Positions 6,781-62,158 of a DNA stretch of 64,000 nucleotides are shown here, piece after piece. The position numbers and the translations under genes were made by a program. Within the stretch, counting starts at the first letter, position 1; the number at the start of each line of letters is the position of its first letter. Source of the DNA: Gallionella sp. (GTDB taxonomy: Bacteria; Pseudomonadota; Gammaproteobacteria; Burkholderiales; Gallionellaceae); the NCBI GenBank assembly GCA_030652475.1, contig JAUSAO010000003.1, positions 12,960 to 76,959 of the forward strand, written 5' to 3'. A model generated the notes under the pieces. It did not search any database. It was not told where the DNA came from and worked only from the letters and a program-made list of their open reading frames with translations.

Positions 6781-6825
6781 TGGGGAGTTACTCCCCACTC
6801 CCCACTCCCCACTCCCCACTCACCA
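6781..6825. repeat. Heptamer tandem array (CTCCCCA)x4 plus CTCACCA, preceded by one inverted unit
   Basis: Perfect units at 6791, 6798, 6805 and 6812; inverted tggggag at 6781-6787; lies at the convergent junction of yqaA and the M17 peptidase. Confidence 0.9.
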
Positions 6826-8422
6826 TTTTTAACCCCCAGCCCACCCCGAAACCCGTTACCTCGCTGGCCACGCTACCCAGCCCGCCTTCGCAGCGACTGG
6901 CGGACAAGTCTATATGCAGCCAGGGCGTATCGTGTTCTACGAAGCGCTTCAGAAATCGTGTAGCCAGAATGTGGTCGGCCTCACCGTCCAGCGTGCATTG
7001 TTTGATATCGGCCACTTTGGAATCAAGCGCGGCTTCATAGTCTTCATCCAGCGGAAAAGCACACAGGCGTTCGCCGCTTTGGCGACCGACGTTCACCGCG
7101 CGTTGCACCAGTTCATCACGGTTACCCAGTACGCCCGAATAGCGCGCACCCAAAGCCGTCGCCATGCTACCGGTCAGCGTGGCGAAATCGATCATCAGAT
7201 CCGGTTTCTCGCGTGATGCCAACGTCAGCGTATCAGCCAGCACCATGCGGCCTTCGGCATCGGTATGCATCACCTCTATCGTCGTTCCGTTGAGCGCCTT
7301 GACGATATCGTTCTGCTTATAGGCTTTGGGGCTGATGTGGTTCTGCGCCAGCGCCAGCCAGCAGTCGATGTTCACCGGCAGTTTCTGCTGGCTGGCGGCC
7401 AGCAAAATACCCAGTGCGACACCCGAACCGTTCATGTCCTCGTGCATGTTGTGCATGTAACGCGAGGGTTTGAGATTATGCCCGCCGGTATCGAAACAAA
7501 TACCTTTGCCGACCAGCGCCACGGTCTGCTTCGCTTTGGGGTGCTTGTAGGAGAGATGCACGATGGCGGCATCATCAATTTCGCTGCCCTGAGCCACCGC
7601 AACGAACGCACCTGCACCCATCTTGCGCAACGCCTTCATGTCGTATTCCGAATACTGCCATTCGTGCTCTTGCGCCAATTTCTTCACGCGCTTGCGGTAT
7701 TGCCCCGGCGTCAGCTCATTCGGTGGCAACACGGTCAACGCTCGGCACAATAGATTGCCCGCCGCCTGCGCCCTGAATTCCTCCAGCGCCTTGCTGTCGT
7801 CAAATCCGTAAATTGCGATTTTTTGCAGTGCACGGCGTTCATCTTTCTTCTTGTGCACCGGCAGCAACGCACCGTTTACCCATGCCGCATAGGCCGCCAA
7901 TCCGGCAGCCCGTTGCCGCTGGAGCGCATCACCCAGCACCACGATGGCGATAGATTTAGGATATTCGTCCAGTAACGGTTGCAATGCCTTGCGCACCACT
8001 GTTTGCAGCGCGAAGGTATCGCCTAATGGAAAGTCGCGTAGCGCTACGCTTGCCCCCTCGCCCGCAAAGCGGGAGATAACCAGCGACTTGCCCGCTTGCG
8101 GGCTTAGTCGAATGGCTAGTTGTTCCTCCAGGGTTGGGGTGAGGGAACGGGCATGAAGAGCCTTGCTTTTGGAAACTTCACCACGCCCGCTATCGAAATC
8201 CAGCATAGCCCACACGATCAGGCCGCCATTCGTCGCATTAGCCGCAACGGGCGACTTGGCCAGCTCTTCTGCTTTCATGCCGCGCCGTGCCAGCACCGCA
8301 CGGAGCAGATCAACATGCGGCACGCCTTCGGGCAAAGTCTTGGCCTTGGGGAAAATCACCAGCACATGCAGCGCGGAAAGCGTTTCTGGCGGAGTCTGAA
8401 ACAGGGTGAGTTGTGCTAGCAT
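6788..8422 (-). CDS. M17-family leucyl aminopeptidase (PepA paralogue) with an apparent in-frame insertion
   Basis: [18 protein letters not shown] and [12 protein letters not shown] metal-binding motifs. Confidence 0.9.
8052..8154 (-). repeat. Palindromic element in frame within the M17 peptidase, with a nested 54-bp insert (8076-8129)
   Basis: Minus strand reads catgcccgttccctcaccccaaccct[54 bp]ctcccgctttgcgggcgagggggc, similar to the intergenic element at 17411-17464. Confidence 0.7.
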
Positions 8423-8445
8423 TACGTCCTCATTTTTATTGGCTA

Positions 8446-8472
8446 GTCATTCCGTATCCCGCTGGGAATGAC
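8446..8472. repeat. Collapsed remnant of a GTCATTCC...GGAATGAC element
   Basis: gtcattcc-gtatcccgctg-ggaatgac has the same 8-bp termini as the 4420 and 29918 elements. Confidence 0.55.
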
Positions 8473-8502
8473 GTTACAAGAGCCGCGATTATACAGGCCA
8501 CT

Positions 8503-9297
8503 ATGCGCACCTACCTCGATCTCATGCAGCATGTGCTGGAACACGGCACAAAAAAATCAGACCGCACCGGAACCGGCACGGTCAGCGTCTTCGGCTACCA
8601 GATGCGCTTCGACCTGTCGCAGGGCTTCCCGCTAGTCACCACTAAAAAATGCCACATGAAATCCATCATTCACGAATTGCTGTGGTTTCTGCAGGGCGAC
8701 ACCAACATTCGCTACCTGAAGGAAAACGGTGTAAAAATCTGGGACGAGTGGGCTGATGAAAATGGCGATCTCGGCCCGGTGTACGGCAAACAATGGCGCT
8801 CATGGGAGTCGGTGGATGGACGCGTGATAGATCAAATCAAAGTCGCCGTCGAACAACTCAGGAACAACCCCGACTCGCGCCGCATTATCGTCTCGGCCTG
8901 GAACGTAGGCGAACTGGACAAAATGGCGCTCGCCCCCTGCCATGCGTTTTTCCAGTTCTATGTGGCGGACGGCAAGCTGTCCTGCCAACTCTACCAGCGC
9001 AGTGCCGACATCTTCCTCGGCGTGCCGTTCAACATCGCCTCCTACGCGTTGCTTACCATGATGATGGCGCAGGTATGCGACCTAGAACCGGGCGACTTCG
9101 TGCACACCTTCGGGGATGCACATTTGTACCTGAACCACATGGAACAGACGCAGTTGCAACTGTCGCGCGAACCCCACCCGCTGCCTGTCATGCATATCAA
9201 TCCAGACATTAAAGACATCCTCGGCTTCAAATATGAAGATTTCACGCTCGAAGGCTACGATCCTCACCCGGCCATTAAAGGGAAAGTAGCGGTATGA
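8503..9297 (+). CDS. thyA: Thymidylate synthase
   Basis: MRTYLDL...[38 protein letters not shown]. Confidence 0.98.
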
Positions 9298-9899
9298 CCT
9301 CAATCCTCAATCCTTCACGCAACAACTTGGTGCATAATCCAGTAGTTGTGAGGGAAAGTTCCTTGCGGGCTGAATCCTGTATGTCTATCATCGTCGCGAT
9401 GGCAAAGAACCGCACCATCGGTATCAACAACACGCTGCCGTGGCGCTGCCCGGAAGACCTGAAACACTTCAAGGCGCTGACCATGGGTCACCACATGATC
9501 ATGGGTCGCAAAACCTTCGAGTCTATCGGCAAGCCGCTACCGGGGCGCACCACGGTGGTCGTCACCCGAGACCGCGAGTTGAATATCGAGGGCTGTCTGG
9601 TCGCGCATTCGCTGCCTGACGCGCTTGCAGCCTGCTCAAACGACAGTCAGATTTTTATTGTCGGTGGTGCGGAGATTTACGCACAGGCCATGCCGCTGGT
9701 GGATACGCTGTATATCACCGAAATCCAGCAGGATGTAACAGGGGATGCGCATTTCCCGCACGTTGATAAATCAGCATGGCTGGAAGTGGCGCGCGAAATA
9801 CGGCATCAGGAAACGCCGCAAGCGCTGGAATATCACTTCGTCACTTATCGCAGTGCCCATATCAATTCTTGCAAGAGCAAAGCTCTTGGCAAGAATTGA
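9294..9899 (+). CDS. folA: Dihydrofolate reductase (core domain starts near 9381; N- and C-terminal extensions)
   Basis: [50 protein letters not shown] and GDAHFP. ATGA overlap with thyA at 9294; alternative ATG at 9381. Confidence 0.93.
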
Positions 9900-9911
9900 G
9901 TAGTTCCATCA

Positions 9912-10145
9912 ATGTTCGAATGGCCAACCCTGTGGAATCTGCTGATCTCCACCCTCGCGTTTTTTCTGGCCGTCTGGCATTTACGCCGATATCTCGATGA
10001 ACAGGGTATTCCCAAGGGGATGACGCGCGGCATACTGGTGTTGACACTGGCCTCAGTGGTGTCATGGGCCTCGGGAGAACTGGTGGACTGGGTGCAACAA
10101 GCGACTGATCGTACTATTGTCGCCGAACAGCCTGCCATACACTAA
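9912..10145 (+). CDS. Hypothetical small membrane protein (77 aa, two hydrophobic segments)
   Basis: ATG ORF directly after folA, ending just before the terminator. Confidence 0.6.
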   Translation: MFEWPTLWNLLISTLAFFLAVWHLRRYLDEQGIPKGMTRGILVLTLASVVSWASGELVDWVQQATDRTIVAEQPAIH

Positions 10146-10156
10146 CGACAGACAAC

Positions 10157-10187
10157 AAAAAGCCCGGAACTTTCGTTCCGGGCTTTT
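10157..10187. terminator. Bidirectional intrinsic terminator
   Basis: aaaaagcccggaac-tttc-gttccgggctttt hairpin with A/T tails, between convergent genes. Confidence 0.9.
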
Positions 10188-10205
10188 CTACAACTCAAGC
10201 GCTAA

Positions 10206-10409
10206 TTAAGCAGCCTGGATGTTAGAAGCTTGCTTGCCTTTTGGGCCTTGCGTAACTTCGAAGCTAACTTTTTGGCCTTCTTGAAGGGTCTTGAAACCGT
10301 TCATGTTGATTGCTGAAAAGTGTGCAAACAGATCTTCGCTGCCATCATCAGGAGTGACGAAACCGAAACCTTTTGCATCATTGAACCATTTAACTGTACC
10401 AGTTGCCAT
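10206..10409 (-). CDS. Cold-shock protein (CspA family)
   Basis: [17 protein letters not shown] and [11 protein letters not shown] motifs. Confidence 0.97.
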
Positions 10410-10522
10410 GTGACTACTTCCTTTTTTAAAAAACGGGAAAAACTCCCGCGAAACTATTTGATCTAAGGTTGCACATGGTAAAACCAGTACTGCAGTGACT
10501 TTGAATCAAACACGAAGGCTAC

Positions 10523-10551
10523 TTTATACGCGAACTTTAAAAACGTATCAA
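10523..10551 (-). promoter_or_regulatory. Sigma70 promoter of the csp gene (long 5' UTR)
   Basis: Minus strand TTGATA-17 bp-TATAAA, with the -10 about 114 bp upstream of the ATG. Confidence 0.65.
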
Positions 10552-10582
10552 GGAAAATCTTAAAAACAGGATTGACAAGCAA

Positions 10583-10651
10583 ATAGCCCGTAGCTTGTAG
10601 CCAAATCGACCAAAACGCTATTTCTTCGCCGCTACACGCTACCAGCTACAC
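10583..10651. repeat. Inverted pair of degenerate heptamer arrays (TAGC core / GCTA core)
   Basis: atagccc gtagctt gtagcca (10583-10603) ... gctacac gctacca gctacac (10631-10651). Confidence 0.65.
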
Positions 10652-10667
10652 ACTTATGCTGCTGACC

Positions 10668-12914
10668 CTATCTAACGCAGTCCACAAAATAGCGCTTCAC
10701 GCCATCCACTTCCTCGGCGACCAAACCATGAATATCGGTCTCAAAACCCGGCAATTTCTGACTGAAATCACGTGCGAATTTCAGATAATCAACGATAGTC
10801 CTGTTGAATATCTCGCCCGGGATCAGCAGAGGAATACCCGGCGGATAGGGGGTCAGCAATACCGCGGTGATGCGCCCTTCCAGATCGTCTATTTCCACGC
10901 GATCTATTTCATCGTGTGCCATTCTGGCGAAGGCTTCTGATGGCTTCATCGCCGGCTGCATGTCGGACAGATACATCTCGGTGGTCATGCGTGCCACGTT
11001 ATGCATGTTATAGGCATCGTGTATCTGCTGGCACAGGTCACGCAAGCCCACGCGCTCATAACGCGGATACTTCACCGCAAACTCCGGCAGAATGCGCCAG
11101 ATCGGCTGATTCTTGTCGTAGTCATCCTTGAACTGCTGCAGCGCGGTCAGCAGCGTGTTCCAGCGTCCCTTGGTGATGCCGATGGTAAACATAATGAAGA
11201 ACGAATACAGGCCGCACTTTTCGACGATCACGCCGTGTTCAGCCAGATACTTGGTCACCATCGAAGCGGGAATACCGCTATCGGAAAAATCGCCGTCCAC
11301 ATCCAGCCCGGGTGTGATGATGGTGGCCTTGATCGGGTCGAGCATATTGAACCCTTCGGCCAGATCGCCGAAACCATGCCACTTGTCAGAAGGCTTGAGC
11401 ACCCAATCTTCGCGCGAGCCCACGCCTTCCTCGGCGATGACGTCCGGCCCCCACACCTTGAACCACCAATCCAGCCCGAACTCCTCATCCACCTTACGCA
11501 TTGCACGGCGGAAATCCAGCGCCTCAGCGATGGATTCCTCCACCAGCGCTGTGCCTCCCGGCGGCTCCATCATCGCCGCCGCCACGTCACACGAAGCGAT
11601 AATCGCGTACTGCGGACTGGTAGAGGTATGCATCAGGTAGGCCTCGTTAAAAATATGCTTGTTGAGTTTGCGGCTTTGCGGTTCGCGCACCAGAATCTGC
11701 GATGCCTGACTCAGTCCCGCCAGCAATTTGTGGGTCGATTGGGTGGCAAAAATCATCGAACTCTGCGCGAGCGGCCTGTCACGACCTATAGCGTGCATGT
11801 CTTTGTAAAAATCATGGAATGCCGCATGCGGCAACCAGGCTTCGTCGAAATGCAGCGTGTCGATACGCCCGTCGAGCATCTGTTTCAGCATCTCAACGTT
11901 ATAAACCACGCCATCGTAGGTGCTCTGTGTGATGGTCAGGATGCGCGGCTTCTTGGTCTTATCTGCAATGAACGGATTCGCATCAATCTTGCGCTGTATG
12001 CTTTCCGGCTCAAACTCGGATTTCGGAATCGGCCCGATAATGCCGTAGTGATTGCGCGTCGGGGTCAGAAATACCGGCACCGCACCGGTCATCATGATCG
12101 AATGCAGGATGGACTTGTGGCAGTTGCGATCCACCACCACGATATCGCCGGGGGCAACCGTCGAGTGCCAGACGATCTTGTTCGAGGTCGAAGTACCGTT
12201 GGTGACAAAAAACAGATGATCCGCATTAAAAATACGCGCCGCGTTACGTTCAGAAGCCGCAACCGGGCCGGTATGATCGAGCAACTGCCCCAGTTCATCC
12301 ACCGCATTACACACGTCGGCGCGCAGCATATTTTCGCCGAAAAACTGGTGAAACATCTGTCCTACCGGCGACTTCAGGAAGGCCACGCCGCCGGAATGGC
12401 CGGGACAGTGCCATGAATAGGAACCGTCCTGCGCATAATGCAACAAGGCGCGGAAAAACGGCGGAGCCAGCGAATCCAGATAGGAGCGGGCTTCGCGAAT
12501 GATGTGGCGCGCCACAAATTCCGGCGTGTCCTCGTGCATGTGAATGAAACCATGCAACTCGCGCAACACATCATTCGGAATGTGCCGCGAGGTACGCGTT
12601 TCGCCATACAGATAAATCGGAATGTCGGCATTCTTGATACGGATTTCACGGACAAACGCGCGCAGACTCTTCAGCGCGACTTCGGTTTCCTCCTTGCTGC
12701 CACCGCCAAATTCCTCATCGTCAATCGACAACAGAAACGCCGACGCGCGGCTTTGCTGTTGCGCAAACGAGGTCAGATCGCCATAACTGGTGACGCCCAG
12801 CACTTCCATGCCCTCTTTTTCAAGCGCATCGGCCAGCGCACGTATGCCCAGACCACTGGCATTCTCGGAACGAAAATCTTCATCAATGATGACGATGGGA
12901 AAACGAAACTTCAT
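10668..12914 (-). CDS. Arginine/lysine/ornithine decarboxylase (PLP-dependent, wing-domain type)
   Basis: WHCPGHSGG, FVTNGTSTSN, DRNCHKS, HFDEAW and TQSTHKLL (PLP lysine). Confidence 0.93.
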   Translation of the reverse strand: MKFRFPIVIIDEDFRSENASGLGIRALADALEKEGMEVLGVTSYGDLTSFAQQQSRASAFLLSIDDEEFGGGSKEETEVALKSLRAFVREIRIKNADIPIYLYGETRTSRHIPNDVLRELHGFIHMHEDTPEFVARHIIREARSYLDSLAPPFFRALLHYAQDGSYSWHCPGHSGGVAFLKSPVGQMFHQFFGENMLRADVCNAVDELGQLLDHTGPVAASERNAARIFNADHLFFVTNGTSTSNKIVWHSTVAPGDIVVVDRNCHKSILHSIMMTGAVPVFLTPTRNHYGIIGPIPKSEFEPESIQRKIDANPFIADKTKKPRILTITQSTYDGVVYNVEMLKQMLDGRIDTLHFDEAWLPHAAFHDFYKDMHAIGRDRPLAQSSMIFATQSTHKLLAGLSQASQILVREPQSRKLNKHIFNEAYLMHTSTSPQYAIIASCDVAAAMMEPPGGTALVEESIAEALDFRRAMRKVDEEFGLDWWFKVWGPDVIAEEGVGSREDWVLKPSDKWHGFGDLAEGFNMLDPIKATIITPGLDVDGDFSDSGIPASMVTKYLAEHGVIVEKCGLYSFFIMFTIGITKGRWNTLLTALQQFKDDYDKNQPIWRILPEFAVKYPRYERVGLRDLCQQIHDAYNMHNVARMTTEMYLSDMQPAMKPSEAFARMAHDEIDRVEIDDLEGRITAVLLTPYPPGIPLLIPGEIFNRTIVDYLKFARDFSQKLPGFETDIHGLVAEEVDGVKRYFVDCVR

Positions 12915-13067
12915 GTGATGCTCCTAACAAAATATATTTCAGTGCGGACTCATCCGGGCCGCAGGCCGATGTGATGGCGAAACTAAACGCTGTTCATTAC
13001 CTGACTCCAACTGGCATGAAGGAAGTGGGGTGAGAATAGTCGCTGATTGATTCATCGTCAGATTTTA

Positions 13068-13292
13068 TTACTCGTCCTGCGACGCATAAGCGCTGACCAA
13101 TTCATCGATCAGCCCCGTCATCACATTGCGAAATTGTTGCTCATCGCAGCCCATCAGCACGGCATCTTCCAGCGCATCCTGGCATATCTGGCGAATTTCT
13201 TCGAGGTTCTCACCGAGAACCTTGTTCTTTTCCACGCAGGCGATGGTTACGCCCTTGGGCGAACGCCAGATGATGGGCTTGTTATGCGGCAC
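13068..13292 (-). CDS. Conserved-looking hypothetical protein (74 aa)
   Basis: GTG start 5 bp after the dcd stop; IACVEKNKVL...ENLEEIRQICQDALEDAVLMGC helical pattern. Confidence 0.6.
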   Translation of the reverse strand: MPHNKPIIWRSPKGVTIACVEKNKVLGENLEEIRQICQDALEDAVLMGCDEQQFRNVMTGLIDELVSAYASQDE

Positions 13293-13297
13293 GGCGG

Positions 13298-13864: not shown

Positions 13865-13875
13865 AAAAATTCAGT

Positions 13876-13949
13876 TTCAAGCCACAAGGCACAAGCGACA
13901 AGGAAAACGATTCCCCTTGCACCTTGCAACTTGCGCCTTGTAACTTGTC
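13876..13949. repeat. Inverted pair of heptamer arrays (4x CAAG core, 5x CTTG core)
   Basis: ttcaagc cacaagg cacaagc gacaagg (13876-13903); ccttgca ccttgca acttgcg ccttgta acttgtc (13915-13949). Confidence 0.85.
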
Positions 13950-13953
13950 TCCT

Positions 13954-30746: not shown

Positions 30747-30760
30747 AAGAGAATTATAGA

Positions 30761-30781
30761 TGGTGAGTGGTGAGTGGTGAG
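30761..30781. repeat. Heptamer tandem array (TGGTGAG)x3
   Basis: Three perfect units in the short PP2C-rph intergenic region. Confidence 0.75.
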
Positions 30782-30798
30782 TTGGCAGGGCGGCTGCG

Positions 30799-39226: not shown

Positions 39227-39246
39227 TTTGTTTCCTTAAATTAGTA

Positions 39247-39313
39247 GTGAGTCGTGAGTGGCAAGTGGTAAGTCGCAAGTAAGCAGGTTTTTCACTCACC
39301 ACTTTCCACTCAC
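39247..39313. repeat. Inverted pair of heptamer arrays (AGT / ACT cores)
   Basis: gtgagtc gtgagtg gcaagtg gtaagtc gcaagta ... cactcac cactttc cactcac, between nrdA and nrdB. Confidence 0.75.
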
Positions 39314-39399
39314 CGCTTTACTGACATGCTTCACATTCCGGATTGTGGCTCCGCCATTATTTAACTTTTGGTGTCGCCGAAACCCGGAATTCGAGCATG

Positions 39400-42240
39400 T
39401 TACTGACACGCCTCGCATTCCGGGTTGTCAATCGAGCAGAATTGCGTCTCCTGCGCCTCGCCTCCACCAACGGCGACAGCATTCAGCGCACCGGCGCGCC
39501 CGGTGGATTTCTCGGCCGATGTCGCGCCCATCGTGCGCAGATAATAGGTGGTCTTCAGGCCGCGCACCCAGGCCAGCTTGTAGGTATCATCCAGCTTGCG
39601 ACCGGACACCCCCGCCATGTAGATGTTCAGGGATTGCGCCTGATCTATCCACTTCTGACGACGTGACGCGGCTTCGATCAGCCAGCTGGGTTCGACTTCG
39701 AACGCCGTGGCATACAGGCTGCGCAACTCGGCCGGCACACGGTCGATCTTCGCCAGACTGCCGTCGAAGTATTTCAGGTCTGAGATCATCACCTCATCCC
39801 ACAAGCCCAGCTCCTTCAGGTCAGCAACCAGATTGTCGTTGATCACGGTGAACTCGCCGGACAGATTCGATTTCACAAAAATGTTCTGGTAAGTCGGCTC
39901 TATGCAGGCCGATACGCCGATGATGTTCGAGATCGTCGCGGTCGGGGCAATCGCAACGCAATTGGAATTGCGCATGCCGTATTGCTCGATGCGGGAACGC
40001 AGCGCATCCCAGTCCATGCTGACCGACATGTCCACTTCGACATAGCCGCCGCGCTCTTCGCGCAACAGATCCAGCGTGTCCTGAGGCAGGATGCCGCAAT
40101 CCCACAGGCTGCCTTTATATGAAGCGTAGCGGCCGCGCTCCTGCGCCAGTTCGGTGGAGGCCCAGTATGCGTAATAGCACACCGCTTCCATCGAACGGTC
40201 GGCGAATTCGACCGCCGCCTCGGAAGAGTACGCGGTGCGCAACTGGTGCAGACAATCCTGGAAACCCATGATGCCCAGACCGACCGGACGGTGCTTGAGA
40301 TTGGAATTGCGCGCCTTGGCGACCGCGTAATAGTTGATGTCGATCACGTTATCCAGCATGCGCATCGCGGTGTTGACGGTGCGGCGCAGCTTGTCATGGT
40401 CGATCTGCCCGGCACGTTCGTGCCCCTTGGGGTAGAGGTGCGCCGGCAGATTGACCGATCCCAGATTGCATACGGCGATCTCGTCGGCATTGGTGTTCAG
40501 GGTGATTTCGGTACACAGATTCGAGCTGTGCACCACGCCGACGTGTTGCTGCGGCGAACGGATATTGCAGGGGTCCTTGAAAGTGATCCACGGGTGTCCG
40601 GTCTCGAACAGCATGGTCAGCATCTTGCGCCACAGACTGGCCGCCTGCACCGTCTTGTACAACTTGATTTCGCCGCGCTCGGCACGCGCCTCGTAGGCGA
40701 TGTATGCCTGCTCGAAATCCTTGCCGAACAGGTCGTGCAAATCCTTCACGTCAGAAGGCGAGAACAGCGTCCAGTTGCCGCCTTCCATCACGCGCTTCAT
40801 GAACAGGTCGGGAATCCAGTTGGAGGTATTCATATCATGGGTGCGGCGACGGTCATCGCCGGTGTTCTTGCGCAAGTCCAGGAACTCTTCGATGTCCAGA
40901 TGCCATGTTTCCAGATAGGCGCACACCGCGCCCTTGCGCTTGCCGCCCTGATTGACCGCGACCGCCGTATCGTTCACCACCTTGAGGAACGGCACCACGC
41001 CCTGCGACTGTCCGTTGGTCCCCTTGATGTGCGCCCCCAGTGCACGCACCGGCGTCCAGTCGTTGCCCAGACCACCGGCAAATTTCGCCAGCAGCGCGTT
41101 TTCCTTGATCGCGTCATAAATGCCTTCCAGATCATCTTCCACTGTGGTCAGATAGCACGAAGACAGTTGTGAACGGCGTGTTCCGGAATTGAACAACGTC
41201 GGTGTGGAACACATGAAGTCGAAGCCGGACAACAGACGATAAAACTCGATCGCGCGCGCCTCCCTGTCTATCTCGTTCAATGACAGCCCCATGGCGACGC
41301 GCATAAAGAACACTTGCGGCAATTCGATACGCGTTTCCTCGACATGCAGGAAATAACGGTCGTACAACGTTTGCAGACCCAGGTAACCGAATTGCAGATC
41401 GCGCGATGCGTCCAGTTCAGCCGCCAGACGCGGCAGGTCGTATCCCGCCAGACGCTCATCCAGCAACTCGGCGGCAATGCCGCGCTTGATATATTTCGGG
41501 AAATATTCCACATAGCGCGCATCCATGTCGGCTGGCGTCACTTCTTCGCCCAATACTTCGCAGCAGATATTGTTCAACAACAGCCGCGCGGTAACAAAAT
41601 TATATGCCGGTTCATTTTCGATCAGCGCGCGCGCCGACAGAATCAGACATTTGTGTACCTCATGCATAGGCACGCCATCGTACATATCCTTCAAGGCGCT
41701 GCGTATGACTTTTTCTGCATCGACCACGTCGCCCAGGCCCGCACAGGCGGATTGCACCAGAACAGTGAAACGGTCCAGATCCAGTGGGCGCACCACCCCG
41801 TCTTCGCTGGTGACGTTTATGACGTGAACCGGCTCCTGCGTTCTGGATTTGGCGCGTGAGCGTGAATGTTCTTCGCGATACAACACATAGGCGCGCGCAA
41901 CATCATGTTCACCGGAGCGCATCAGACCCAATTCAACCTGATCCTGAATATCCTCGATATGCAGCGTGCCGCCATGCGGCTGACGGCGCATCAACGCGCT
42001 GACCACCCCGCCGGTGAGTTGCTCGACGATTTCGCGGACACGTGCGGAAGCCGCACCCTGGCCACCGCTCACGGCGATGAAAGCCTTGGTTAACGCGACC
42101 GAGATTTTCGCTGGCTCAAACACCACCACAGAACCATTGCGTCGAATAACCTTGTATTGATCAAACTGCTGCCCTGCAGATGCAACAGTATTGGCAGACG
42201 AAAAAGAAGCGGAGGCGCTATAAGCAGCGGAATTTGGCAT
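39400..42240 (-). CDS. nrdA: Ribonucleotide reductase class Ia alpha subunit
   Basis: ATP cone (VIRRNG), STPTLFNSG, LSSCY, SNLCTEI, APTATIS, GLKTTYYLR and C-terminal CEAC; start uncertain (42240 or 42246). Confidence 0.95.
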   Translation of the reverse strand: MPNSAAYSASASFSSANTVASAGQQFDQYKVIRRNGSVVVFEPAKISVALTKAFIAVSGGQGAASARVREIVEQLTGGVVSALMRRQPHGGTLHIEDIQDQVELGLMRSGEHDVARAYVLYREEHSRSRAKSRTQEPVHVINVTSEDGVVRPLDLDRFTVLVQSACAGLGDVVDAEKVIRSALKDMYDGVPMHEVHKCLILSARALIENEPAYNFVTARLLLNNICCEVLGEEVTPADMDARYVEYFPKYIKRGIAAELLDERLAGYDLPRLAAELDASRDLQFGYLGLQTLYDRYFLHVEETRIELPQVFFMRVAMGLSLNEIDREARAIEFYRLLSGFDFMCSTPTLFNSGTRRSQLSSCYLTTVEDDLEGIYDAIKENALLAKFAGGLGNDWTPVRALGAHIKGTNGQSQGVVPFLKVVNDTAVAVNQGGKRKGAVCAYLETWHLDIEEFLDLRKNTGDDRRRTHDMNTSNWIPDLFMKRVMEGGNWTLFSPSDVKDLHDLFGKDFEQAYIAYEARAERGEIKLYKTVQAASLWRKMLTMLFETGHPWITFKDPCNIRSPQQHVGVVHSSNLCTEITLNTNADEIAVCNLGSVNLPAHLYPKGHERAGQIDHDKLRRTVNTAMRMLDNVIDINYYAVAKARNSNLKHRPVGLGIMGFQDCLHQLRTAYSSEAAVEFADRSMEAVCYYAYWASTELAQERGRYASYKGSLWDCGILPQDTLDLLREERGGYVEVDMSVSMDWDALRSRIEQYGMRNSNCVAIAPTATISNIIGVSACIEPTYQNIFVKSNLSGEFTVINDNLVADLKELGLWDEVMISDLKYFDGSLAKIDRVPAELRSLYATAFEVEPSWLIEAASRRQKWIDQAQSLNIYMAGVSGRKLDDTYKLAWVRGLKTTYYLRTMGATSAEKSTGRAGALNAVAVGGGEAQETQFCSIDNPECEACQ

Positions 42241-52608: not shown

Positions 52609-52688
52609 GACCGAAGATTAACCGTTTTGTGTCAATACTGCCAGCAGTAGAACTCACTGACGGCGAAAATTCATGAGAGTCAAACAGA

Positions 52689-52785
52689 GGAAGTGGAAAG
52701 TGGGGAAATCCACTACAAAAAATTGGGGAGTAGTCAGTGAGAAACCGCTCCCACTCACTACTCCCCACTGACCACTTATTACTTC
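52689..52785. repeat. Degenerate inverted heptamer arrays (AGT / ACT cores)
   Basis: ggaagtg gaaagtg ... ggggagt agtcagt ... ccactca ctactcc ccactga ccactta ttacttc, directly after the ilvC stop. Confidence 0.65.
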
Positions 52786-53918
<1,133 letters not shown>

Positions 53919-53925
53919 TTTTAAT

Positions 53926-56126: not shown

Positions 56127-56275
56127 GACACACACCCTATGATTAAACTAAAAAGAACTGCGTAAGATAAAGGGAAGCGGCATTTTGGTCAACTACTTAC
56201 GTCGCATACCCACATGTTTTCTGGCTAAAAACACCGTAATTTGTTAGTATTCGCACTCATTGCAAGGAGTAAAAA

Positions 56276-56845
56276 CTGGCAACCCAAGCTGAATTAAGCG
56301 ATTTTCTGAGCCGCATCGAACGCCGTGCTTACAAACATGCCGCCTTTGCTGTGCACGATAGCCATACCGCGCTGGATATCGTTCAGGACGCCATGATCAA
56401 ACTGGCGGAAAGGTATGGCGACAAGCCTGCCGACGAATTGCCTTTGTTGTTCCATCGTATTTTGCAGAACACTATTCGTGACCATTACCGTCGTCAAAAG
56501 GTGCGCACGCACTGGATATCACTATTCTCCGCCTTTCAGCCCAAGCACGACGAAGAGGAATTCGACCCGCTGGATGTGCTTGAGGATGACAACAATCAAA
56601 GTACCCCTGCAACCCCGGATTCGGCCATGCAACAAAAGCAGATTTTGGCCTTGATCGAACAGGCCTTAAGCAAACTCCCGCTGCGTCAACGCGAAGCCTT
56701 TCTGCTGCGTTACTGGGAAGGGTTGGATACAGCCGAAACAGCCAGGGCGATGGGATGTACCGAAGGCAGCGTCAAAACCCACTGTTCGAGAGCGAATCAC
56801 GCTTTAGCCGCGACGCTAAAAGCTAAAGGAGTTGAATTACCATGA
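56276..56845 (+). CDS. ECF RNA polymerase sigma factor, probably CTG-initiated
   Basis: Region 2 (DIVQDAMIKL) and region 4 (LPLRQREAFLLRYWEG...GSVKTHCSRA). CTG at 56276 follows AAGGAG, with an in-frame TAA at 56270. Confidence 0.85.
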   Translation: MATQAELSDFLSRIERRAYKHAAFAVHDSHTALDIVQDAMIKLAERYGDKPADELPLLFHRILQNTIRDHYRRQKVRTHWISLFSAFQPKHDEEEFDPLDVLEDDNNQSTPATPDSAMQQKQILALIEQALSKLPLRQREAFLLRYWEGLDTAETARAMGCTEGSVKTHCSRANHALAATLKAKGVELP

Positions 56846-57192
56846 AACCATATAAGCAAGACCTGAATCACACGCTCATAGCTGAATTGCTCACGCAAAG
56901 CAGCGGGCAACTTGATGAGCATATTGTCACTACACTACGTCAGGCGCGCGCCATTGCATTGCAAAAGCAAAAACTGCGCGAGCCCGTCCTGTCGTTGAGC
57001 GCGATAGGCCATCGCGCCCACGCGCTTATGCCGCATTCCACCCATCAATGGCTGGCGACAGCCATGCTGATCGCGGCGATCATCGTCAGCGTGACCAGCT
57101 ATTGTCAATACACGCAAGAACATCAGGGTAGCCATCTGGATATCGCCATTCTGACCGACGATTTGCCCATGGAAGTGTTCATAGATCATTAA
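56842..57192 (+). CDS. DUF3619-like membrane protein (putative anti-sigma)
   Basis: LRQARAIAL, one TM segment and LDIAILTDDLP; overlaps the sigma stop. Confidence 0.7.
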   Translation: MKPYKQDLNHTLIAELLTQSSGQLDEHIVTTLRQARAIALQKQKLREPVLSLSAIGHRAHALMPHSTHQWLATAMLIAAIIVSVTSYCQYTQEHQGSHLDIAILTDDLPMEVFIDH

Positions 57193-57196
57193 GCAC

Positions 57197-57559
57197 ATGA
57201 AAATACTCATCGCCGCGTTTGCATTCTGCTGCTCGCTCAACGTCTCCTTGGTCGCTGCCTCACCGGAGCCCTGGCACAAGCTCACCTCTTCCGAACAGGC
57301 AGCGCTTGCGCCAGTGCAGTCGCAATGGAGCAGCTTATCCGAAGCGCAGCAACGTAACTTTCTGGATATCGCTCATCATTATCCTGATCTTAATCCGAGC
57401 GAAAAACAGCGTTTCCTGAGCCGATTAGCAACATGGGCCAAACTCACTCCGGAACAACGTCAGGCAGCGCGCGACAAATATCGTGCCTTTAGCAAGATAC
57501 CGGAAGAAAAACGCGAGCAGGTCAAACAGATGATTACACAAGACCAGAAAAACAAATAA
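57197..57559 (+). CDS. DUF3106-like periplasmic protein
   Basis: Signal peptide and repeated W..L/T..Q motifs (WHKLTSSEQ, WSSLSEAQQ, WAKLTPEQR). Confidence 0.72.
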   Translation: MKILIAAFAFCCSLNVSLVAASPEPWHKLTSSEQAALAPVQSQWSSLSEAQQRNFLDIAHHYPDLNPSEKQRFLSRLATWAKLTPEQRQAARDKYRAFSKIPEEKREQVKQMITQDQKNK

Positions 57560-57585
57560 GCCGTCTCCCGCCTTCAACAACACGA

Positions 57586-58662
57586 TCAGCGCCGTTCTAT
57601 CCACCACAGCATCACACCACCCAGCAACAAAAACAGGCCTGTCATTGCCGTGGCGCTGAGCACGGGTTGCCAGCCATTGAGTGCGCCCAGACTGGCGAAC
57701 AGACGACCGGCAAAGTGAAACACCAGCCCCAGCACAATCCCCATGAATATCATCACGCTGATACCGCCCTTGCGCCGCTGATAAGACGCGAAAGGCAATG
57801 CCAGCACCATCATCACCAGCAAGGCAAACGGGTAAACCAGCTTGTTCCACATTGCGATTTCGTAACGCACACTCTGCTGCTTGTTTTCTTTCAGATGGGT
57901 CGCGTATTTATACAAATCGATGGCAGACATTTGTTCAGGCACCACCAGCATCACGCTCAGTATCCCCGGCGTCAGCGCGGATTTCCATGGCTGATTTTGT
58001 AACTCAGTGGTCGTTACGCCGCGCTTGTCAAAACGCGTCTCCAGCACCTCCCCCAACAGCCAGCTTCCCGGCTTGACATAGCTTGCCTGTTTGGCGCTGA
58101 TAATCGCCTGCAAATGAAAAGCCTCGTCAAAACTGTAAATCGTGATGTCCGACAAGCTGGTGTCAGGCATCACGCTTCTGACATTGACGAAACTGCGATC
58201 ATCCTTCACCCATACGCCGGAGCGGAATGCCTGCAAGGAAACCTGCGTATGCATCGCTTCAAGTCGCAATTTCTGCGCCATACGTTCGCTGGGCGGCGCC
58301 AGCAATTCACCGCAGATAAAACTGAGCATGACCATGGGCAACGCAATTTTTCCCAGCGCGACCAGCATCTGCACTGTCGACGCCCCTGAAGCACGATATA
58401 TCGTCACCTCTGAGCGTGCCGCCATTTGCACCAGCGCAACGATAGTGCCCACCAGCACCGCCACCGGAAACAGCTCGTAGATATGCCCCGGCATCGTCAG
58501 TACAACGAACAGCAAGACGTAGCCCAGGCCGTATTGACCATAACCCATCACGCTCAGCTCATGAATAAAATCAAGGAAAGCAAACAACATGATAAGCGCG
58601 GCAAACACCAGCGCGACACTGGCGTATATTTCCTTAGCCAGATAGCGAGTCAATAAATTCAT
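57586..58662 (-). CDS. lptG: LPS export ABC transporter permease LptG
   Basis: MNLLTRYLA, ARSEVTIYRASG and AMWNKLVYP; translationally coupled to lptF. Confidence 0.9.
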   Translation of the reverse strand: MNLLTRYLAKEIYASVALVFAALIMLFAFLDFIHELSVMGYGQYGLGYVLLFVVLTMPGHIYELFPVAVLVGTIVALVQMAARSEVTIYRASGASTVQMLVALGKIALPMVMLSFICGELLAPPSERMAQKLRLEAMHTQVSLQAFRSGVWVKDDRSFVNVRSVMPDTSLSDITIYSFDEAFHLQAIISAKQASYVKPGSWLLGEVLETRFDKRGVTTTELQNQPWKSALTPGILSVMLVVPEQMSAIDLYKYATHLKENKQQSVRYEIAMWNKLVYPFALLVMMVLALPFASYQRRKGGISVMIFMGIVLGLVFHFAGRLFASLGALNGWQPVLSATAMTGLFLLLGGVMLWWIERR

Positions 58663-59792
58663 TTCCTGAGCACCCTGCGCAGCGAGAACAACGACATGCG
58701 CCAATAAAATAACAACACGGTGATCAGCAACATCAACACATGTATGCCCCACAGCCCGATACCGGGCGACAGCTTGCCCTGCCCAACCCACGCGTTGGTC
58801 ACACTAATCATGTTGCTGTACAGCATGTACAGCACAATAGCCATAATCAGGTTCAACGAACGTCCAGCACGGGGATTGACATAACTCAAGGCAATGGCCA
58901 GCAATGAAAGCACGGCCGCGCTTATCGGCAACCCTAAACGCCATTCCAGTTCAGACAGGTTCCAGGTCGTGGGATTACGCCACAATTCCGGGGTAGTCAT
59001 CGTGCGCGCATTCGGCTGCGCCTGCTTGGTCGCTACGCTGTCTATACGCATTGCATAACGTTCAAATTCCACGATGCGATAATCGCGCTGACCCGGCGTA
59101 CCCTCATAACGCGTGCCATTCAATAACACCAGAAAACGGTCACCGTTCGGCAACGTTTCCTGAAAGCCCTGGCGTGCCACCATCGTGCCCAGTTGCTTAT
59201 TTTGCACAGAACGCACGAAGATATTACCGACCTGATTGCTGCTCACATCGACATCCTCGACAAAATACACTCTGTCCGCCTGATTCGACTCGCGAAACAC
59301 GCCGGGTTTCACCATGGCAACTTCATCACGGCTTTCCAGTTTGTTTTTATATACCTCCGCTTTTTGCAAAGCCCACGGTGACAACACCAGACTGAGCAGC
59401 GCAATCAACACCACCACGGGGATGGAATACCATAACACCGGTCGTATCCAGCGCGTCAGGCCGATACCGGCACAGAACCACACCACCATTTCACTGTCGC
59501 GATAACAGCGCGACAGCGTCAGCAAAATGGATATAAACAGACTGATCGAAAGCAGCACAGGCAGATAATTCAAGGCGCTAAAACCAAGCAGTGCCAATAC
59601 GCCATCCGCGGCCAGCTTGCCGCTGACTGCGGCACCCAGAAAACGAATCAGCTGACTGACCACCACAATGCCCAGCAAGGTTGCAAATACCAGCAAGCCA
59701 TTGCCGACAAACTCAAGCACCAGAGCACGCTGAAAGAGGTCGCGGCGAAACAACTTTGACTTTACACGGGAAGTTTGCGGATAATCAGGCAT
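58659..59792 (-). CDS. lptF: LPS export ABC transporter permease LptF
   Basis: RCYRDSEMVVWFCAG, GTRYEG, ELEWRLGLP and YVNPRAGR; start uncertain; divergent from pepA. Confidence 0.9.
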   Translation of the reverse strand: MPDYPQTSRVKSKLFRRDLFQRALVLEFVGNGLLVFATLLGIVVVSQLIRFLGAAVSGKLAADGVLALLGFSALNYLPVLLSISLFISILLTLSRCYRDSEMVVWFCAGIGLTRWIRPVLWYSIPVVVLIALLSLVLSPWALQKAEVYKNKLESRDEVAMVKPGVFRESNQADRVYFVEDVDVSSNQVGNIFVRSVQNKQLGTMVARQGFQETLPNGDRFLVLLNGTRYEGTPGQRDYRIVEFERYAMRIDSVATKQAQPNARTMTTPELWRNPTTWNLSELEWRLGLPISAAVLSLLAIALSYVNPRAGRSLNLIMAIVLYMLYSNMISVTNAWVGQGKLSPGIGLWGIHVLMLLITVLLFYWRMSLFSLRRVLRK

Positions 59793-59823
59793 CGGAACAT
59801 AAAATTGAATGAGGGAGCAACGC

Positions 59824-61314
59824 GTGGAATTTAGCATAAAACAAAGCAGTCCGGAAAATCAGCGCAGCGCGTGCATCGTTCTGGGCGTTTTTGAGGGCGG
59901 CCAGTTGTCCCCCGCCGCACAAATTCTCGATCAAGCGACCGGACACCAGTTAAGCAAACTGGTCACACGCGGCGATGTGACGGGCAAAACAGGCAACACC
60001 GCGTTGCTTCATACCCTGTCCGGCGTGAACGCCGAACGCGTGTTGCTGATAGGCCTGGGCAAAGCCCGTGAGTTTAACGCCAAACAATTTCTCGATGCGC
60101 TGCGCACCACCTTTGCTGTACTGCAGAAAACAATCTGCAAAGACGCCGTACTCTATTTCACCGACCTTACCGTCCAGCAGCGCGATGAGGCCTGGAAAAT
60201 CAACCAGATCGTATTGCTCGCTGCCGAGTCTGCGTATCGTTGCGACCAGCTCAAGAGCAAACCGGCCGATAAGCCGAGCTTGCGCAAAATCCTGCTGGGC
60301 TGTGTAAAAAAACCGGGTAATGCCGCTCAAACCGCACTACTTCAGGCCAGCGCCACGGCACACGGCATGAAATTAACCAAGGATTTGGGTAATTTGCCCG
60401 GCAATATCTGCACCCCGACTTATCTGGCGGAGCAGGCACGCAAGCTGGCCGAAACCTATAAGTTCAAGGTGACCGTCCTGGAAGAGAAGGATATGGAAAA
60501 ATTGGGCATGCATTCGCTGCTGTCCGTCACGCGTGGCAGCCGTCAACCCGCCAAACTGATTACGCTGGAATATCACGGCGGCGACAAGAAACAAAAACCC
60601 GTGGTACTGGTTGGCAAGGGACTCACCTTTGACTCCGGCGGTGTCTCGCTCAAACCCGGCGCGTCGATGGACGAGATGAAGTACGACATGTGCGGCGCGG
60701 CCAGTGTGCTGGGCACCATGCAGGCGATTGCCGAAATGGGTCTGAAGCTCAACGTGGTCGCCGTCATTCCAAGCAGCGAAAACATGCCGGATGGTGCGGC
60801 CAGCAAGCCCGGCGACATCGTAAAAAGCATGGCCGGGCTGACCATCGAAATCCTCAATACCGATGCCGAAGGCCGTTTGATACTGTGCGATGCGCTGACC
60901 TATGCCGCGCGATTTGAACCGGACACTGTGTTAGATATCGCCACCCTCACCGGCGCCTGCGTGATCGCGCTGGGCGGCGTCGCCAGCGGCCTGTTCAGCA
61001 ATCAGGATGAACTAGCCCGCGAATTGGCTGAAGCAGGCGAATATTCAAATGACCGCGCATGGCACATGCCGCTATGGGACGATTACCAGCAACAGCTGGA
61101 CAGTAATTTTGCCGACATGCAGAACATCGGTGGACGCGAGGCGGGCAGCATTACCGCCGCGTGCTTTTTGTCACGCTTCACCAAGAATTACCGCTGGGCG
61201 CATCTGGATATCGCGGGTACGGCCTGGAAATCCGGCAAGGACAAGGGTTCGACCGGGCGTCCGGTACCACTGCTCACGCGCTATTTGATCCAGCGGGCTC
61301 AAGCCGCAAAATAA
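59824..61314 (+). CDS. pepA: Cytosol leucyl aminopeptidase
   Basis: LVGKGLTFDSGG, MKYDMCGAA and NTDAEGRLILCD; lptF-pepA-holC-valS context; GTG start. Confidence 0.95.
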   Translation: MEFSIKQSSPENQRSACIVLGVFEGGQLSPAAQILDQATGHQLSKLVTRGDVTGKTGNTALLHTLSGVNAERVLLIGLGKAREFNAKQFLDALRTTFAVLQKTICKDAVLYFTDLTVQQRDEAWKINQIVLLAAESAYRCDQLKSKPADKPSLRKILLGCVKKPGNAAQTALLQASATAHGMKLTKDLGNLPGNICTPTYLAEQARKLAETYKFKVTVLEEKDMEKLGMHSLLSVTRGSRQPAKLITLEYHGGDKKQKPVVLVGKGLTFDSGGVSLKPGASMDEMKYDMCGAASVLGTMQAIAEMGLKLNVVAVIPSSENMPDGAASKPGDIVKSMAGLTIEILNTDAEGRLILCDALTYAARFEPDTVLDIATLTGACVIALGGVASGLFSNQDELARELAEAGEYSNDRAWHMPLWDDYQQQLDSNFADMQNIGGREAGSITAACFLSRFTKNYRWAHLDIAGTAWKSGKDKGSTGRPVPLLTRYLIQRAQAAK

Positions 61315-61745
61315 TGACCAGAGTAGATTTTTATACAGGCTCTCCCGACAAGCTGCGCACCGCTTGTCAGTTGAGCCATAAAGCCATGCAAAACGGCCTG
61401 CACACCATCATCAGCCTGCCCGATGCTGCGAGTTGCGATGCGCTGGATCGGTTGTTGTGGCATTACCCTGACACCGCCTTCATCCCGCATTGCCGCAGCG
61501 ACGCGGAACAGGCAGCACAGACACCGGTTGTTCTGAGCCACGACAACGATAAATTTCCGCACCACGACTTGTTGATCAGCCTGCATGGCGAGTGCATGCC
61601 CTTTTTCAGCCGCTTTGATCGCGTCATCGAAATCGTCGGCATGAGCGAGGAAGAAAGCCGCCTGGGGCGTGAGCGCTACGCGTTTTACCGGGATCGCGGC
61701 TACGAACTGCGCCATTTCGACCTGAACAAGGCCAATGAGCCATGA
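61314..61745 (+). CDS. holC: DNA polymerase III chi subunit
   Basis: MTRVDFY, LDRLLW...FIPH, FSRFDRVIEIV and RERYAFYRDRGY. Confidence 0.92.
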   Translation: MTRVDFYTGSPDKLRTACQLSHKAMQNGLHTIISLPDAASCDALDRLLWHYPDTAFIPHCRSDAEQAAQTPVVLSHDNDKFPHHDLLISLHGECMPFFSRFDRVIEIVGMSEEESRLGRERYAFYRDRGYELRHFDLNKANEP

Positions 61746-62116
61746 CACCGCAGAACATTTATTCTAGCGATGACTTGCCTTTGCTGACCGAGGTGGTCAA
61801 CCATCCTGATTTTAACGACTTGCCGATACTCACCGAGGTCGTTGCCGAAGAGACACAGACCGGCGAACCTCATTCCATAGCCGATCAGCCAACCGCCAGC
61901 GCAGCCGTGCTGCCACGCACCTTGAGCGCCGAAGAGATGCAGTATCTGTTGCAGCAACTTGAAACGCATCTGGAAACCGTATTTACCGGCAAACTAAACA
62001 GACACATCGAGCAACTGCAAAAACTCGCCGTTGATCTGGCGATCAGCGAACTCAAAGCCGAACTACCCCAATTGCTGCGTGATGCGCTGTCAAAGACGGC
62101 CGGTGGTAAGTGGTAA
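61742..62116 (+). CDS. Hypothetical protein (DUF2486-like) with duplicated DLPxLTEVV motif
   Basis: SDDLPLLTEVV and NDLPILTEVV, then an acidic linker and a helical C-terminus; between holC and valS. Confidence 0.65.
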   Translation: MTPQNIYSSDDLPLLTEVVNHPDFNDLPILTEVVAEETQTGEPHSIADQPTASAAVLPRTLSAEEMQYLLQQLETHLETVFTGKLNRHIEQLQKLAVDLAISELKAELPQLLRDALSKTAGGKW

Positions 62117-62158
62117 GTGGTAAGTGGTCGAACAGTTTACTCACTACTCACGACTCAC
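62105..62158. repeat. Inverted pair of heptamer arrays (GGTAAGT)x3 / (NACTCAC)x3
   Basis: Perfect ggtaagt at 62105, 62112 and 62119; tactcac tactcac gactcac at 62138-62158. Confidence 0.85.

Follow-up and report, generated by a model that had tools for sequence, protein, structure and literature searches.

Short tandem arrays with a period of 7 bp lie at gene junctions in a 64,000-nucleotide stretch of Gallionella sp. DNA (contig C92:12960-76959, hereafter the window), and most of them consist of a run of units followed by a run of reverse-complement units. The question raised by these loci is what they are and how they came to their places. A sequence-only reading had proposed that a process fixing the period rather than the sequence builds or deposits them, that they may be the empty-site scars of a small mobile gene or may act as mRNA stem-loops, and that four-helix-bundle (4HB) genes are often flanked by such arrays; its interpretation is partly supported. 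The 4HB genes, of roughly 120 codons, encode Avd-like proteins of the TIGR02436/PF05635 family, annotated as '23S rRNA intervening-sequence protein'. We consider it probable that each pair of arrays makes up the two arms of a small insertable hairpin element, and that the loci of the window are short forms or decay products of such elements rather than the outcome of gene loss in place. This answer draws on the observed architecture, the period specificity, the presence/absence polymorphism with exact boundaries, the bursts in the copy number of families and the integration of the elements into reading frames.

Period-7 arrays were called with Tandem Repeats Finder (TRF) in the window and in the whole genome (an assembly of 3.06 Mb in 146 contigs, 54% G+C), RNA folding energies and z-scores were computed for the window loci, and gene identities were taken from NCBIfam profiles. 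The TRF calls at 6790-6825, 10630-10651, 13878-13947, 30761-30782, 39257-39319 and 62103-62158 confirmed six of the eight loci listed in the sequence-only reading; the other two, at 52689 and 53827, are degenerate and have no TRF call, yet are recognisable by eye in the sequence. One more array, at 9298-9314, brought the number of loci to nine. The claim that most loci are inverted pairs held for six of the nine, the exceptions being a lone arm at 30761 and decayed loci at 9297 and 53827. Five loci folded with z-scores of -4.0 to -5.9, the locus at 62098 with -2.9 and that at 53826 with -1.25. The gene identities dcd, apbC, nrdA, nrdB, rph, ilvC, ilvH, valS, thyA, folA and pssA were confirmed; the name holC, given in the sequence-only reading to an ORF that had no NCBIfam match at E <= 1e-10, is kept only as putative. 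In the descriptions below the G-arm is the G/T-rich array and the C-arm its C/A-rich reverse complement.

6777-6828, no strand assigned: hairpin between convergent genes (TRF 6790-6825, 96% matches; fold -17.6 kcal/mol, z -4.4). The short G-arm (TAGATAGTGGGGAGT) starts within the stop codon of a DedA/VTT-type gene and the C-arm is ACTCCCC x5. Read on its minus strand, this array codes the final ~11 codons and the stop of pepA (named by NCBIfam).
9297-9380, plus strand: decayed element at the thyA-folA junction, recognised from TRF and the orthologous series and absent from the earlier list. Its parts are CCTCAAT x2.4, a small hairpin (GCAACAACT..AGTTGTG) and CTGAATCC.
10583-10651, no strand assigned: inverted pair of the TAGC/GCTA family, 3' of a lysine/arginine-decarboxylase-like gene (TRF 10630-10651; fold -19.4 kcal/mol, z -4.0), reading ATAGCCCG TAGCTTG TAGCC ... 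GCTACAC GCTACCA GCTACAC.
13872-13952, minus strand: gene-less hairpin of the CAAGG/CCTTG family, with ~5 units per arm, filling the apbC-dcd junction (TRF; fold -40.7 kcal/mol, z -5.9).
30757-30785, minus strand: single arm, CTCACCA x3 (TRF, 100% matches), with 14 nt between its end and the start codon of rph downstream. The arm lacks a partner, and the fold shows no hairpin.
39239-39322, minus strand: gene-less hairpin of the GTGAGTG/CACTCAC family at the nrdA-nrdB junction (TRF; fold -33.7 kcal/mol, z -5.4).
52684-52782, minus strand: two adjoining hairpins between ilvC and pssA, both of the GGGGAGT/CCCACT family, seen in the sequence (fold -43.4 kcal/mol, z -5.5); the first, with a U6 run behind it, resembles an intrinsic terminator.
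53826-53922, minus strand: decaying member of the AGTCGTT/AACGACT family at the ilvH-ilvC junction, with the conserved centre AGTTAAACCCGCGCAGCGGACAACGAAAACT (fold z -1.25).
62098-62161, plus strand: gene-less hairpin between putative holC (a 124-aa open reading frame, ORF) and valS (TRF, 100% and 92% matches; fold -27.1 kcal/mol, z -2.9). Its arms are GGTAAGT x3.7 ... TACTCAC x3, and the TAA stop of the upstream ORF lies in unit 2 of the first arm.

Two further observations concern the surroundings of these loci. A 129-aa ORF beside the 6781 array was considered as a divergent 4HB gene and rejected, its sole match being a weak one to a VTT/DedA domain below the Pfam gathering cut-off. Right behind the nrdA stop codon, at 39323-39402, lies an insert of ~82 nt that ends in a second copy of the last codons of nrdA (CCACAATCCGGAATGTGAAGCATGTCAGTAA, coding ..NPECEACQ*). 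A partial reverse complement of the nrdA end precedes this copy, which makes the element palindromic overall; the insert is missing in the closest relative, G044, and variants occur in several congeners.

The period of 7 bp is a property of the genome as a whole. TRF called 240 period-7 arrays genome-wide, and in the DNA outside long ORFs it called 112 with period 7, 12 with period 6 and 17 with period 8. A second count, made with a self-match detector of our own and controlled by shuffling 100-nt blocks, gave 146 strict period-7 arrays (79 intergenic and 67 ORF-covered, against 1.2 and 7 after shuffling), as compared with 7 and 35 for period 6 (shuffled 0.4 and 4.2) and 4 and 5 for period 8 (shuffled 0 and 0.8). 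Period 7 was thus enriched over 6 and 8 and over the shuffled genome, as the sequence-only reading had expected, and the arrays are heptanucleotide tandem repeats in the sense used for short tandemly repeated repetitive sequences (STRR) and long simple-sequence repeats (LSSR), with at least three copies, above chance and above the neighbouring periods. At least eight unit families exist side by side in the genome, among them AACGACT (30 arrays), ACTGAGG, ACTAGCG, AATCCTC, AAGTGGG/AAGTGGT and ACTCCCC. None of the published units CCCCAGT, TTGGTCA, CAACAGT, GGGAATC and TAACTGA was among the 25 commonest canonical units of the genome.

The arms follow strict rules of layout. An inverted pair was defined as two arrays of opposite G/C bias at most 60 nt apart. 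At the 33 loci with both arm types, the G-arm preceded the C-arm in 30 and the reverse order occurred in 0; since an inverted repeat reads alike on both strands, the fixed G-first order is a real constraint. The 30 pairs with a classified context were found at 25 co-directional, 5 convergent and 0 divergent junctions, where divergent junctions make up 13% of the baseline by count and 20% by length. The convergent inverted-pair layout described in Xanthomonas thus occurs here as well. The first arm started within -26 to +15 nt of the upstream stop codon in 18 of 23 co-directional pairs. Among the loci viewed, a U tract after the stem was seen only at 52684-52782 (U6) and C46:21833, no dedicated terminator scan having been run.

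The genome contains two intact TIGR02436/PF05635 genes (C79:9113-9466 and C94:40483-40851; TIGR02436 scores of 128.2 and 110.6 bits with a cut-off of 24, PF05635 scores of 138.2 and 114.6 bits with a cut-off of 33.8) and one fragment on contig C112. Both intact genes adjoin heptamer arrays, the C94 gene on both sides and the C79 gene at a downstream arm only, and the nearest named relatives of the cassette protein come from metagenome-assembled genomes (MAGs) of Betaproteobacteria. The same arrangement was found in the comparison set of 61 congener genomes. At ~50 4HB loci inspected there, a G-type array runs up to the start codon of the 4HB gene and a reverse-complement array starts from or in its stop codon, with rare exceptions (for example L253 and L255). 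These cassettes are located in guaB-guaA, thyA-folA, dnaK-dnaJ and a few further junctions, and in most of them the 4HB ORF lies inside an inverted-repeat stem, with a computed arm-to-arm duplex across the gene of -41 kcal/mol (median). The window arrays enclose no ORF. The unit tracks the protein subfamily rather than the locus, as in the case of GGATTGA/TCAATCC, which accompanies the VWQKAMDLVT subfamily at two loci; the TAGC/GCTA family of window locus 10583-10651 also borders 4HB genes at guaB-guaA in congeners. In one AGTGGGG-type cassette (L245, G066:C3:7044-7752) the G-arm has long irregular G runs (GGGGGTGGGGGGGGGAGTGGGGGGGGGGGAGG), which may have come from an error of assembly or sequencing within the repeat.

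Similar results were obtained outside the genus with 80 4HB loci from Planctomycetota, Acidobacteriota, Bacteroidota, Clostridia, Chloroflexota, Desulfobacterota, Cyanobacteria and other groups, which were scanned for strict arrays within 150 nt upstream and downstream of the gene and in control windows 300-450 nt away. Period-7 arrays were present upstream at 45 of the 80 loci and downstream at 41. Periods 5, 8, 9 and 10 gave 0 arrays, period 6 gave 2, and the distal control windows gave 0 and 1. The polarity of the arms was the same as in the genus: upstream arrays were of G type in 40 cases versus 5, and downstream arrays of C type in 34 versus 7. The flanking rule is general across phyla and specific for period 7, and the earlier statement that TIGR02436-type genes are often flanked by such arrays proved correct.

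In this genome gene-less forms outnumber gene-bearing forms by roughly 100 to 1. A tblastn search of the whole genome for 4HB remnants beside gene-less arrays returned just the two intact genes and the C112 fragment; with no 4HB pseudogenes found there, recent loss of the gene in place was rejected for most loci. Orthologous junctions in the congeners bear on the same point. At thyA-folA, a junction of the window that was compared in 30 congeners, the full series of virgin, occupied, decayed and arrays-only states was observed. At virgin sites the folA ATG overlaps the thyA TGA (ATGA) and there are no arrays. Occupied sites measure 429-482 nt and have the order arm, gene, arm, with the thyA stop now a TAG or TAA inside the first unit. 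Decay is represented by a gene truncated at its 5' end (349 nt) and by a remnant of 191 nt, and gene-less arrays of 50-83 nt include the junction of the window itself. Arrays were present at all 29 scorable guaB-guaA junctions, with a gene in 12 and gene-less pairs of several families (46-138 nt) in 17.

The remaining junctions showed a different picture. Upstream of dcd, among the 23 congeners having the junction, a hairpin with various units was found in 10 and none in 6. Hairpins of at least three families occur at nrdA-nrdB in 11 of 30 congeners, the array-free junctions measuring 18-60 nt. Of 30 congeners compared at ilvH-ilvC, 14 keep a virgin gap of 19-35 nt and 13 carry a hairpin without a gene. 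Taken together, the roughly 85 congener junctions at dcd, nrdA-nrdB and ilvH-ilvC contain no 4HB gene. The expectation that orthologous junctions hold a gene between the arrays was thus borne out at thyA-folA and guaB-guaA and failed at dcd, nrdB and ilvC. Since virgin sites are free of any arrays, the arrays arrive as part of the element, and the view of them as empty-site scars does not stand: truly empty sites are, for example, the ATGA of thyA-folA and the 19-35 nt of ilvH-ilvC. The hairpins at dcd, nrdB and ilvC are independent insertions of gene-less elements and not scars of gene loss in place. Because the 25-30 relatives compared at each of these three junctions are virgin or have gene-less hairpins of other families, and never the gene, the pairs in the window are best described as non-autonomous and similar to miniature inverted-repeat transposable elements (MITEs). 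At ilvH-ilvC of one congener (L264, G067:C33) a second hairpin is nested in the central loop of an AGTCGTT-type element, at the place where cassettes hold the gene.

A second syntenic copy of window positions 38089-64000, ~90% identical, is present in the same bin on contig C77 (29,885 nt). It presumably belongs to a co-binned related population, which fits the contamination estimate of 4.9%. The alignment between C77 and the window is interrupted exactly at the repeat-bearing junctions. At nrdA-nrdB an AGTCGTT-type hairpin replaces the GTGAGTG/CACTCAC family, at ilvC-pssA there is a GGGGAAG/CCCTTC hairpin unlike the family of the window, and at ilvH-ilvC the element is the same in both. In the ortholog of window 62098-62161 (C77:24470-24530) a palindrome resembling repetitive extragenic palindromic (REP) sequences, GTAGGGTGGGCAATATGCCCAC...GTGGGCAATATGCCCACCCTAC, replaces the heptamer hairpin.

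The elements are woven into the translation of the neighbouring genes. The stops of pepA, putative holC and thyA fall within first arms, and the guaA start codon is located in the last unit of an array (ACTAATG). Fourteen thyA-folA junctions exceed 40 nt, and in every one of them the folA frame continues upstream across the second arm without a stop. The open frame mostly reaches an ATG, either 1-5 nt past the 4HB stop or at the ancestral ATGA start, with GTG or TTG in place of ATG at two junctions. In the window the entire stretch 9297-9380 belongs to such a frame, whose 87 nt connect the ancestral ATGA start with folA. At L075 every third unit is CCCAAAT instead of CCTGAAT, which removes the in-frame TGA, and the seven CTCAATC units of L076 extend the reading frame by 18 codons. 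A C-arm upstream of folA is accordingly predicted to be read as an N-terminal extension of the protein, for example MPSSTLNPESQILNPESQ... Being rich in G, T and A, and having a unit length of 7 with no factor in common with 3, the first arm would give stops in all frames; the G-poor second arm would lack ATG or GTG starts and TAG or TGA stops. The supply of stops by the first arm and the openness of the second may offer a reason for the polarity of the arms. As a side observation, longest-ORF calls ran on through the repeat remnant at folA, making the gene 28 codons too long (window 9294-9899), and extended the C-terminus of pepA through the array (window 6788-8422).

The gene-less forms have a history of their own. 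A centre, AGTTA...CCGCGCAGCGGACAAC..AACT, is common to ten loci of this genome in both orientations, and a closely similar centre with two substitutions occurs at nrdA-nrdB of another species, G006. The AGTCGTT-family pattern has 0 copies in 34 of the 61 congeners and peaks of 97, 59, 56 and 55 in four, in all of which the cognate gene is intact. Where only a pseudogene is left the hits number 3-5, and a control with the pattern reversed gave 0-1. The family is absent in nearer relatives by nrdB identity (G046, G004) and plentiful in the more distant G064 and G067, so its distribution is not one of simple inheritance. These counts are no more than suggestive of a tie between copy number and the presence of the cognate gene. 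Unit numbers drift between orthologs: the element at C22:72414 has 3 units where G044 has 7. An array of (GGGAAGA) x7 occurs at L226. As expected of MITEs, an internal sequence is shared at unrelated loci (10 copies), presence/absence polymorphism is observed and a family has 0-97 copies per genome. The idea of a process that fixes period and not sequence is better replaced by that of several families of elements that differ in their unit; a unit travels with its gene subfamily and multiplies in lineage-specific bursts.

In the proposed family of elements the full form is a cassette resembling an intervening sequence (IVS), composed of a G/T-rich heptamer array, the ~120-codon 4HB gene and a reverse-complement C/A-rich array, and in the short form only 10-60 nt separate two arms of this kind. 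The first arm gives or overlaps the stop codon of the upstream gene, and the second arm, G-poor and with few starts and stops, carries the downstream start or is read as an N-terminal extension. The loci of the window would have arisen from independent insertions of several unit families together with slippage in unit number. In the transcript the arms would pair to form a long stem that, by analogy with the IVS of Coxiella, may be cut by RNase III. We propose this cutting of operon stems because the arms pair (the -41 kcal/mol given above), because rnc is present in the genome and because of the Coxiella precedent; processing of the stems by RNase III in this organism is inferred. Gene-less forms would rely in trans on a cognate cassette, and the elements would be selfish and probably have no function for the host.

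Several results weigh against this proposal. G032 has the cognate gene and yet 0 strict hits of the AGTCGTT pattern, whereas G006, G031 and G035 have 18-49 hits with the cognate gene not found, and the congener genomes are phylogenetically related and not independent. An exact-pattern search for the conserved centre found it in 4 of the 61 genus genomes, several hits being orthologous to copies of this genome, so that shared-centre copies are partly orthologous between close relatives and recent movement is not directly shown. No target-site duplication was seen on comparing virgin with occupied junctions. The sole linked gene is the 4HB gene, which belongs to no known transposase family, and to our knowledge no mechanism of mobility is known. 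The swaps of families at one junction could have occurred by homologous recombination through the conserved flanking genes and not by transposition. Lastly, sense and antisense folding energies did not differ in the 25 co-directional pairs (13 versus 12, p = 0.68).

The closest known systems include the IVSs of 23S rRNA (Coxiella helix 45, Leptospira and others). ORF-bearing IVSs have been known since the 1990s. They share with our elements a long inverted-repeat stem whose loop holds a small PF05635/S23p ORF, heptamers of variable number just upstream of the ORF, a highly transcribed host unit, an ORF that is often decaying, and a sporadic distribution with the look of horizontal transfer. 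The Coxiella burnetii 23S IVS has tandem GACAGAT heptamers ahead of its S23p ORF, in a number that varies among strains (Warrier et al. 2016, PMC4990558); that IVS is excised by RNase III, with the 5' cut at the first repeat (PMC4990558). The elements described here differ in that they reside in mRNA operons, between stop and start codons, in that both arms are heptamer arrays, in that gene-less forms prevail, in that the elements are tied into the frames of adjoining genes, and in that RNase III excision is demonstrated in Coxiella and inferred here. No insertion in helix 25 or 45 of 23S rRNA was found: all loci examined lie between protein-coding genes, and the assembly holds no 23S gene. 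We regard the finding as a variant of the IVS kind outside rRNA, with abundant MITE-like derivatives.

Heptamer excess, the cyanobacterial STRR, Xanthomonas GGGAATC and Beggiatoaceae TAACTGA have been published as unexplained repeats (PMC4692102, PMC4679880), the excess of heptamers among LSSRs going back to Mrazek 2007 as cited in PMC4679880 and PMC4692102; the Xanthomonas repeats form 70-75 convergent inverted pairs (Rehm et al. 2015, PMC4692102). Like our arrays these repeats have a period of 7, a strong intergenic bias, positions near gene ends and starts, and a length and sequence variable among close relatives. The papers on them deal with a single unit per organism and make no link to a gene, where here at least eight families are each tied to a subfamily of the 4HB cassette. 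With MITEs, REP sequences and bacterial interspersed mosaic elements the elements share that they are short, non-coding, hairpin-forming, multicopy, intergenic within operons, polymorphic for presence and absence and capable of nested insertion (L264). Their arms, however, are tandem heptamer arrays of variable number and not fixed terminal inverted repeats, no target-site duplication accompanies them, the candidate autonomous partner has no known transposase or REP-associated tyrosine transposase (RAYT), and insertion is exact at stop and start codons. Avd of diversity-generating retroelements (bAvd, PF22296; PMC10053308) has a fold and family in common with the 4HB protein, and the C79 protein matches bAvd weakly (31.7 bits, below the cut-off of 40). 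There is here no adjacent reverse transcriptase and no template/variable repeat pair; none of the three reverse transcriptase genes of the genome adjoins a cassette. Our literature search turned up no paper that describes heptamer arrays as arms of a 4HB cassette. New here are the series of junctions with virgin sites, the gene-less forms with their independent history and their bursts, the strict order of the arms and the integration into reading frames.

An alternative is that the hairpins serve the host as RNA elements, that is, as intercistronic mRNA stabilisers, terminators or translational controls, maybe as a regulon bound in trans by the 4HB or another RNA-binding protein. A role as mRNA stem-loops, which the sequence-only reading had also raised, is plausible because the hairpins fold well. 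They are placed in transcribed junctions, directly 5' of start codons often lacking a Shine-Dalgarno sequence, most loci fold strongly, U6 follows the 52684 hairpin, the C46 locus encloses a classical bidirectional terminator, and the cognate gene and array family tend to co-occur. The TAACTGA repeats, for which a regulon bound in trans was proposed, are placed alike (MacGregor 2015, PMC4679880). Half of the congeners, however, have no element at all at the same essential-operon junctions, and unit families are freely exchanged at one junction. Old copies decay without compensatory changes, as at 53826 (z -1.25), and the comparison with C77 gave 5 changes in one arm versus 1 in the other. Stability has no sense-strand bias, and arrays remain where no 4HB gene was found (for example G009 and G015). 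On balance we regard a host-serving function as an unlikely explanation of the arrays.

A still weaker case can be made for plain simple-sequence repeats, built in situ by polymerase slippage that favours 7-nt units (Mrazek 2007), with inversion as a secondary event. Orthologous copies do differ in unit number, and heptamers are the commonest class of long simple-sequence repeats in many prokaryotes, according to the citing papers PMC4679880 and PMC4692102. Slippage leaves unexplained, however, the constant order in which reverse-complement arms are paired (30 to 0), the non-repetitive centre common to 10 loci, the exact all-or-none boundaries at stop codons, the units that move with a gene subfamily to different loci and the family bursts set against zero copies in near relatives, and as the source of the arrays it is very improbable. 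The formation of G-quadruplex or i-motif structures, studied for GGGAATC in Xanthomonas and GGGGAYT in Nostoc, is hardly credible as their explanation: G runs occur in some families (for example GGGGAGT and GGGAGAA) and such repeats form G-quadruplexes in vitro (Rehm 2015, PMC4692102), but the commonest family, AGTCGTT (30 arrays), has none, nor do CAAGGTG, GGTAGCN and GTGAGTG, so that the unit census is already at odds with it, and the neighbouring complementary arm favours a duplex. Integron attC sites (RYYYAAC ... GTTRRRY) were rejected, since GTTAGAC/GTCTAAC fit the cores in reversed order and the other families do not fit.

Outside the window a second repeat family was observed genome-wide, for example at C3:4651-4767, C4:38966-39082 and C10:8636-8802, with CACGAAA motifs spaced 9-10 nt apart (CCACGAAAGGCACGAAATTCACGAAAG ... 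CTTTCGTGAATTTCGTGCCTTTCGTGG). The motifs make up the inverted termini of a ~120-nt element that occurs at roughly 110 places, several of them at contig ends, and that looks like a MITE with subterminal binding-site repeats.

Insertable hairpin elements of the kind proposed here have practical consequences. Automated annotation near the arrays is likely to be off, as the ends and starts of ORFs are often miscalled there, proteins may have heptamer-encoded extensions with a 7-residue period, and MAG assemblies break at heptamer repeats. The elements also represent an unusual tolerance of insertion in translationally coupled gene pairs, in which the element donates the upstream stop and keeps the downstream frame open through the repeat. 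Three puzzles have long been treated separately: the dominance of heptamers among long bacterial repeats, the role of the large 4HB family and the origin of ORF-bearing IVSs. The genus offers one testable object that joins them, with virgin, occupied, decayed and gene-less states at the same essential-operon junctions. We tentatively suggest, as a possibility that we would not yet call likely, that heptamer-armed hairpins are a widespread class of insertable elements not described before, autonomous-like with the 4HB gene and MITE-like without it, that they are the main source of the bacterial heptamer excess, and that their rRNA members are the ORF-bearing IVSs. If this were true, the elements would home to the stop/start junctions of operons and be harmless there by giving stops, starts and readable extensions, and their spread, decay and slippage would explain the STRR, the GGGAATC repeats of Xanthomonas, the TAACTGA repeats of Beggiatoa and the LSSRs.

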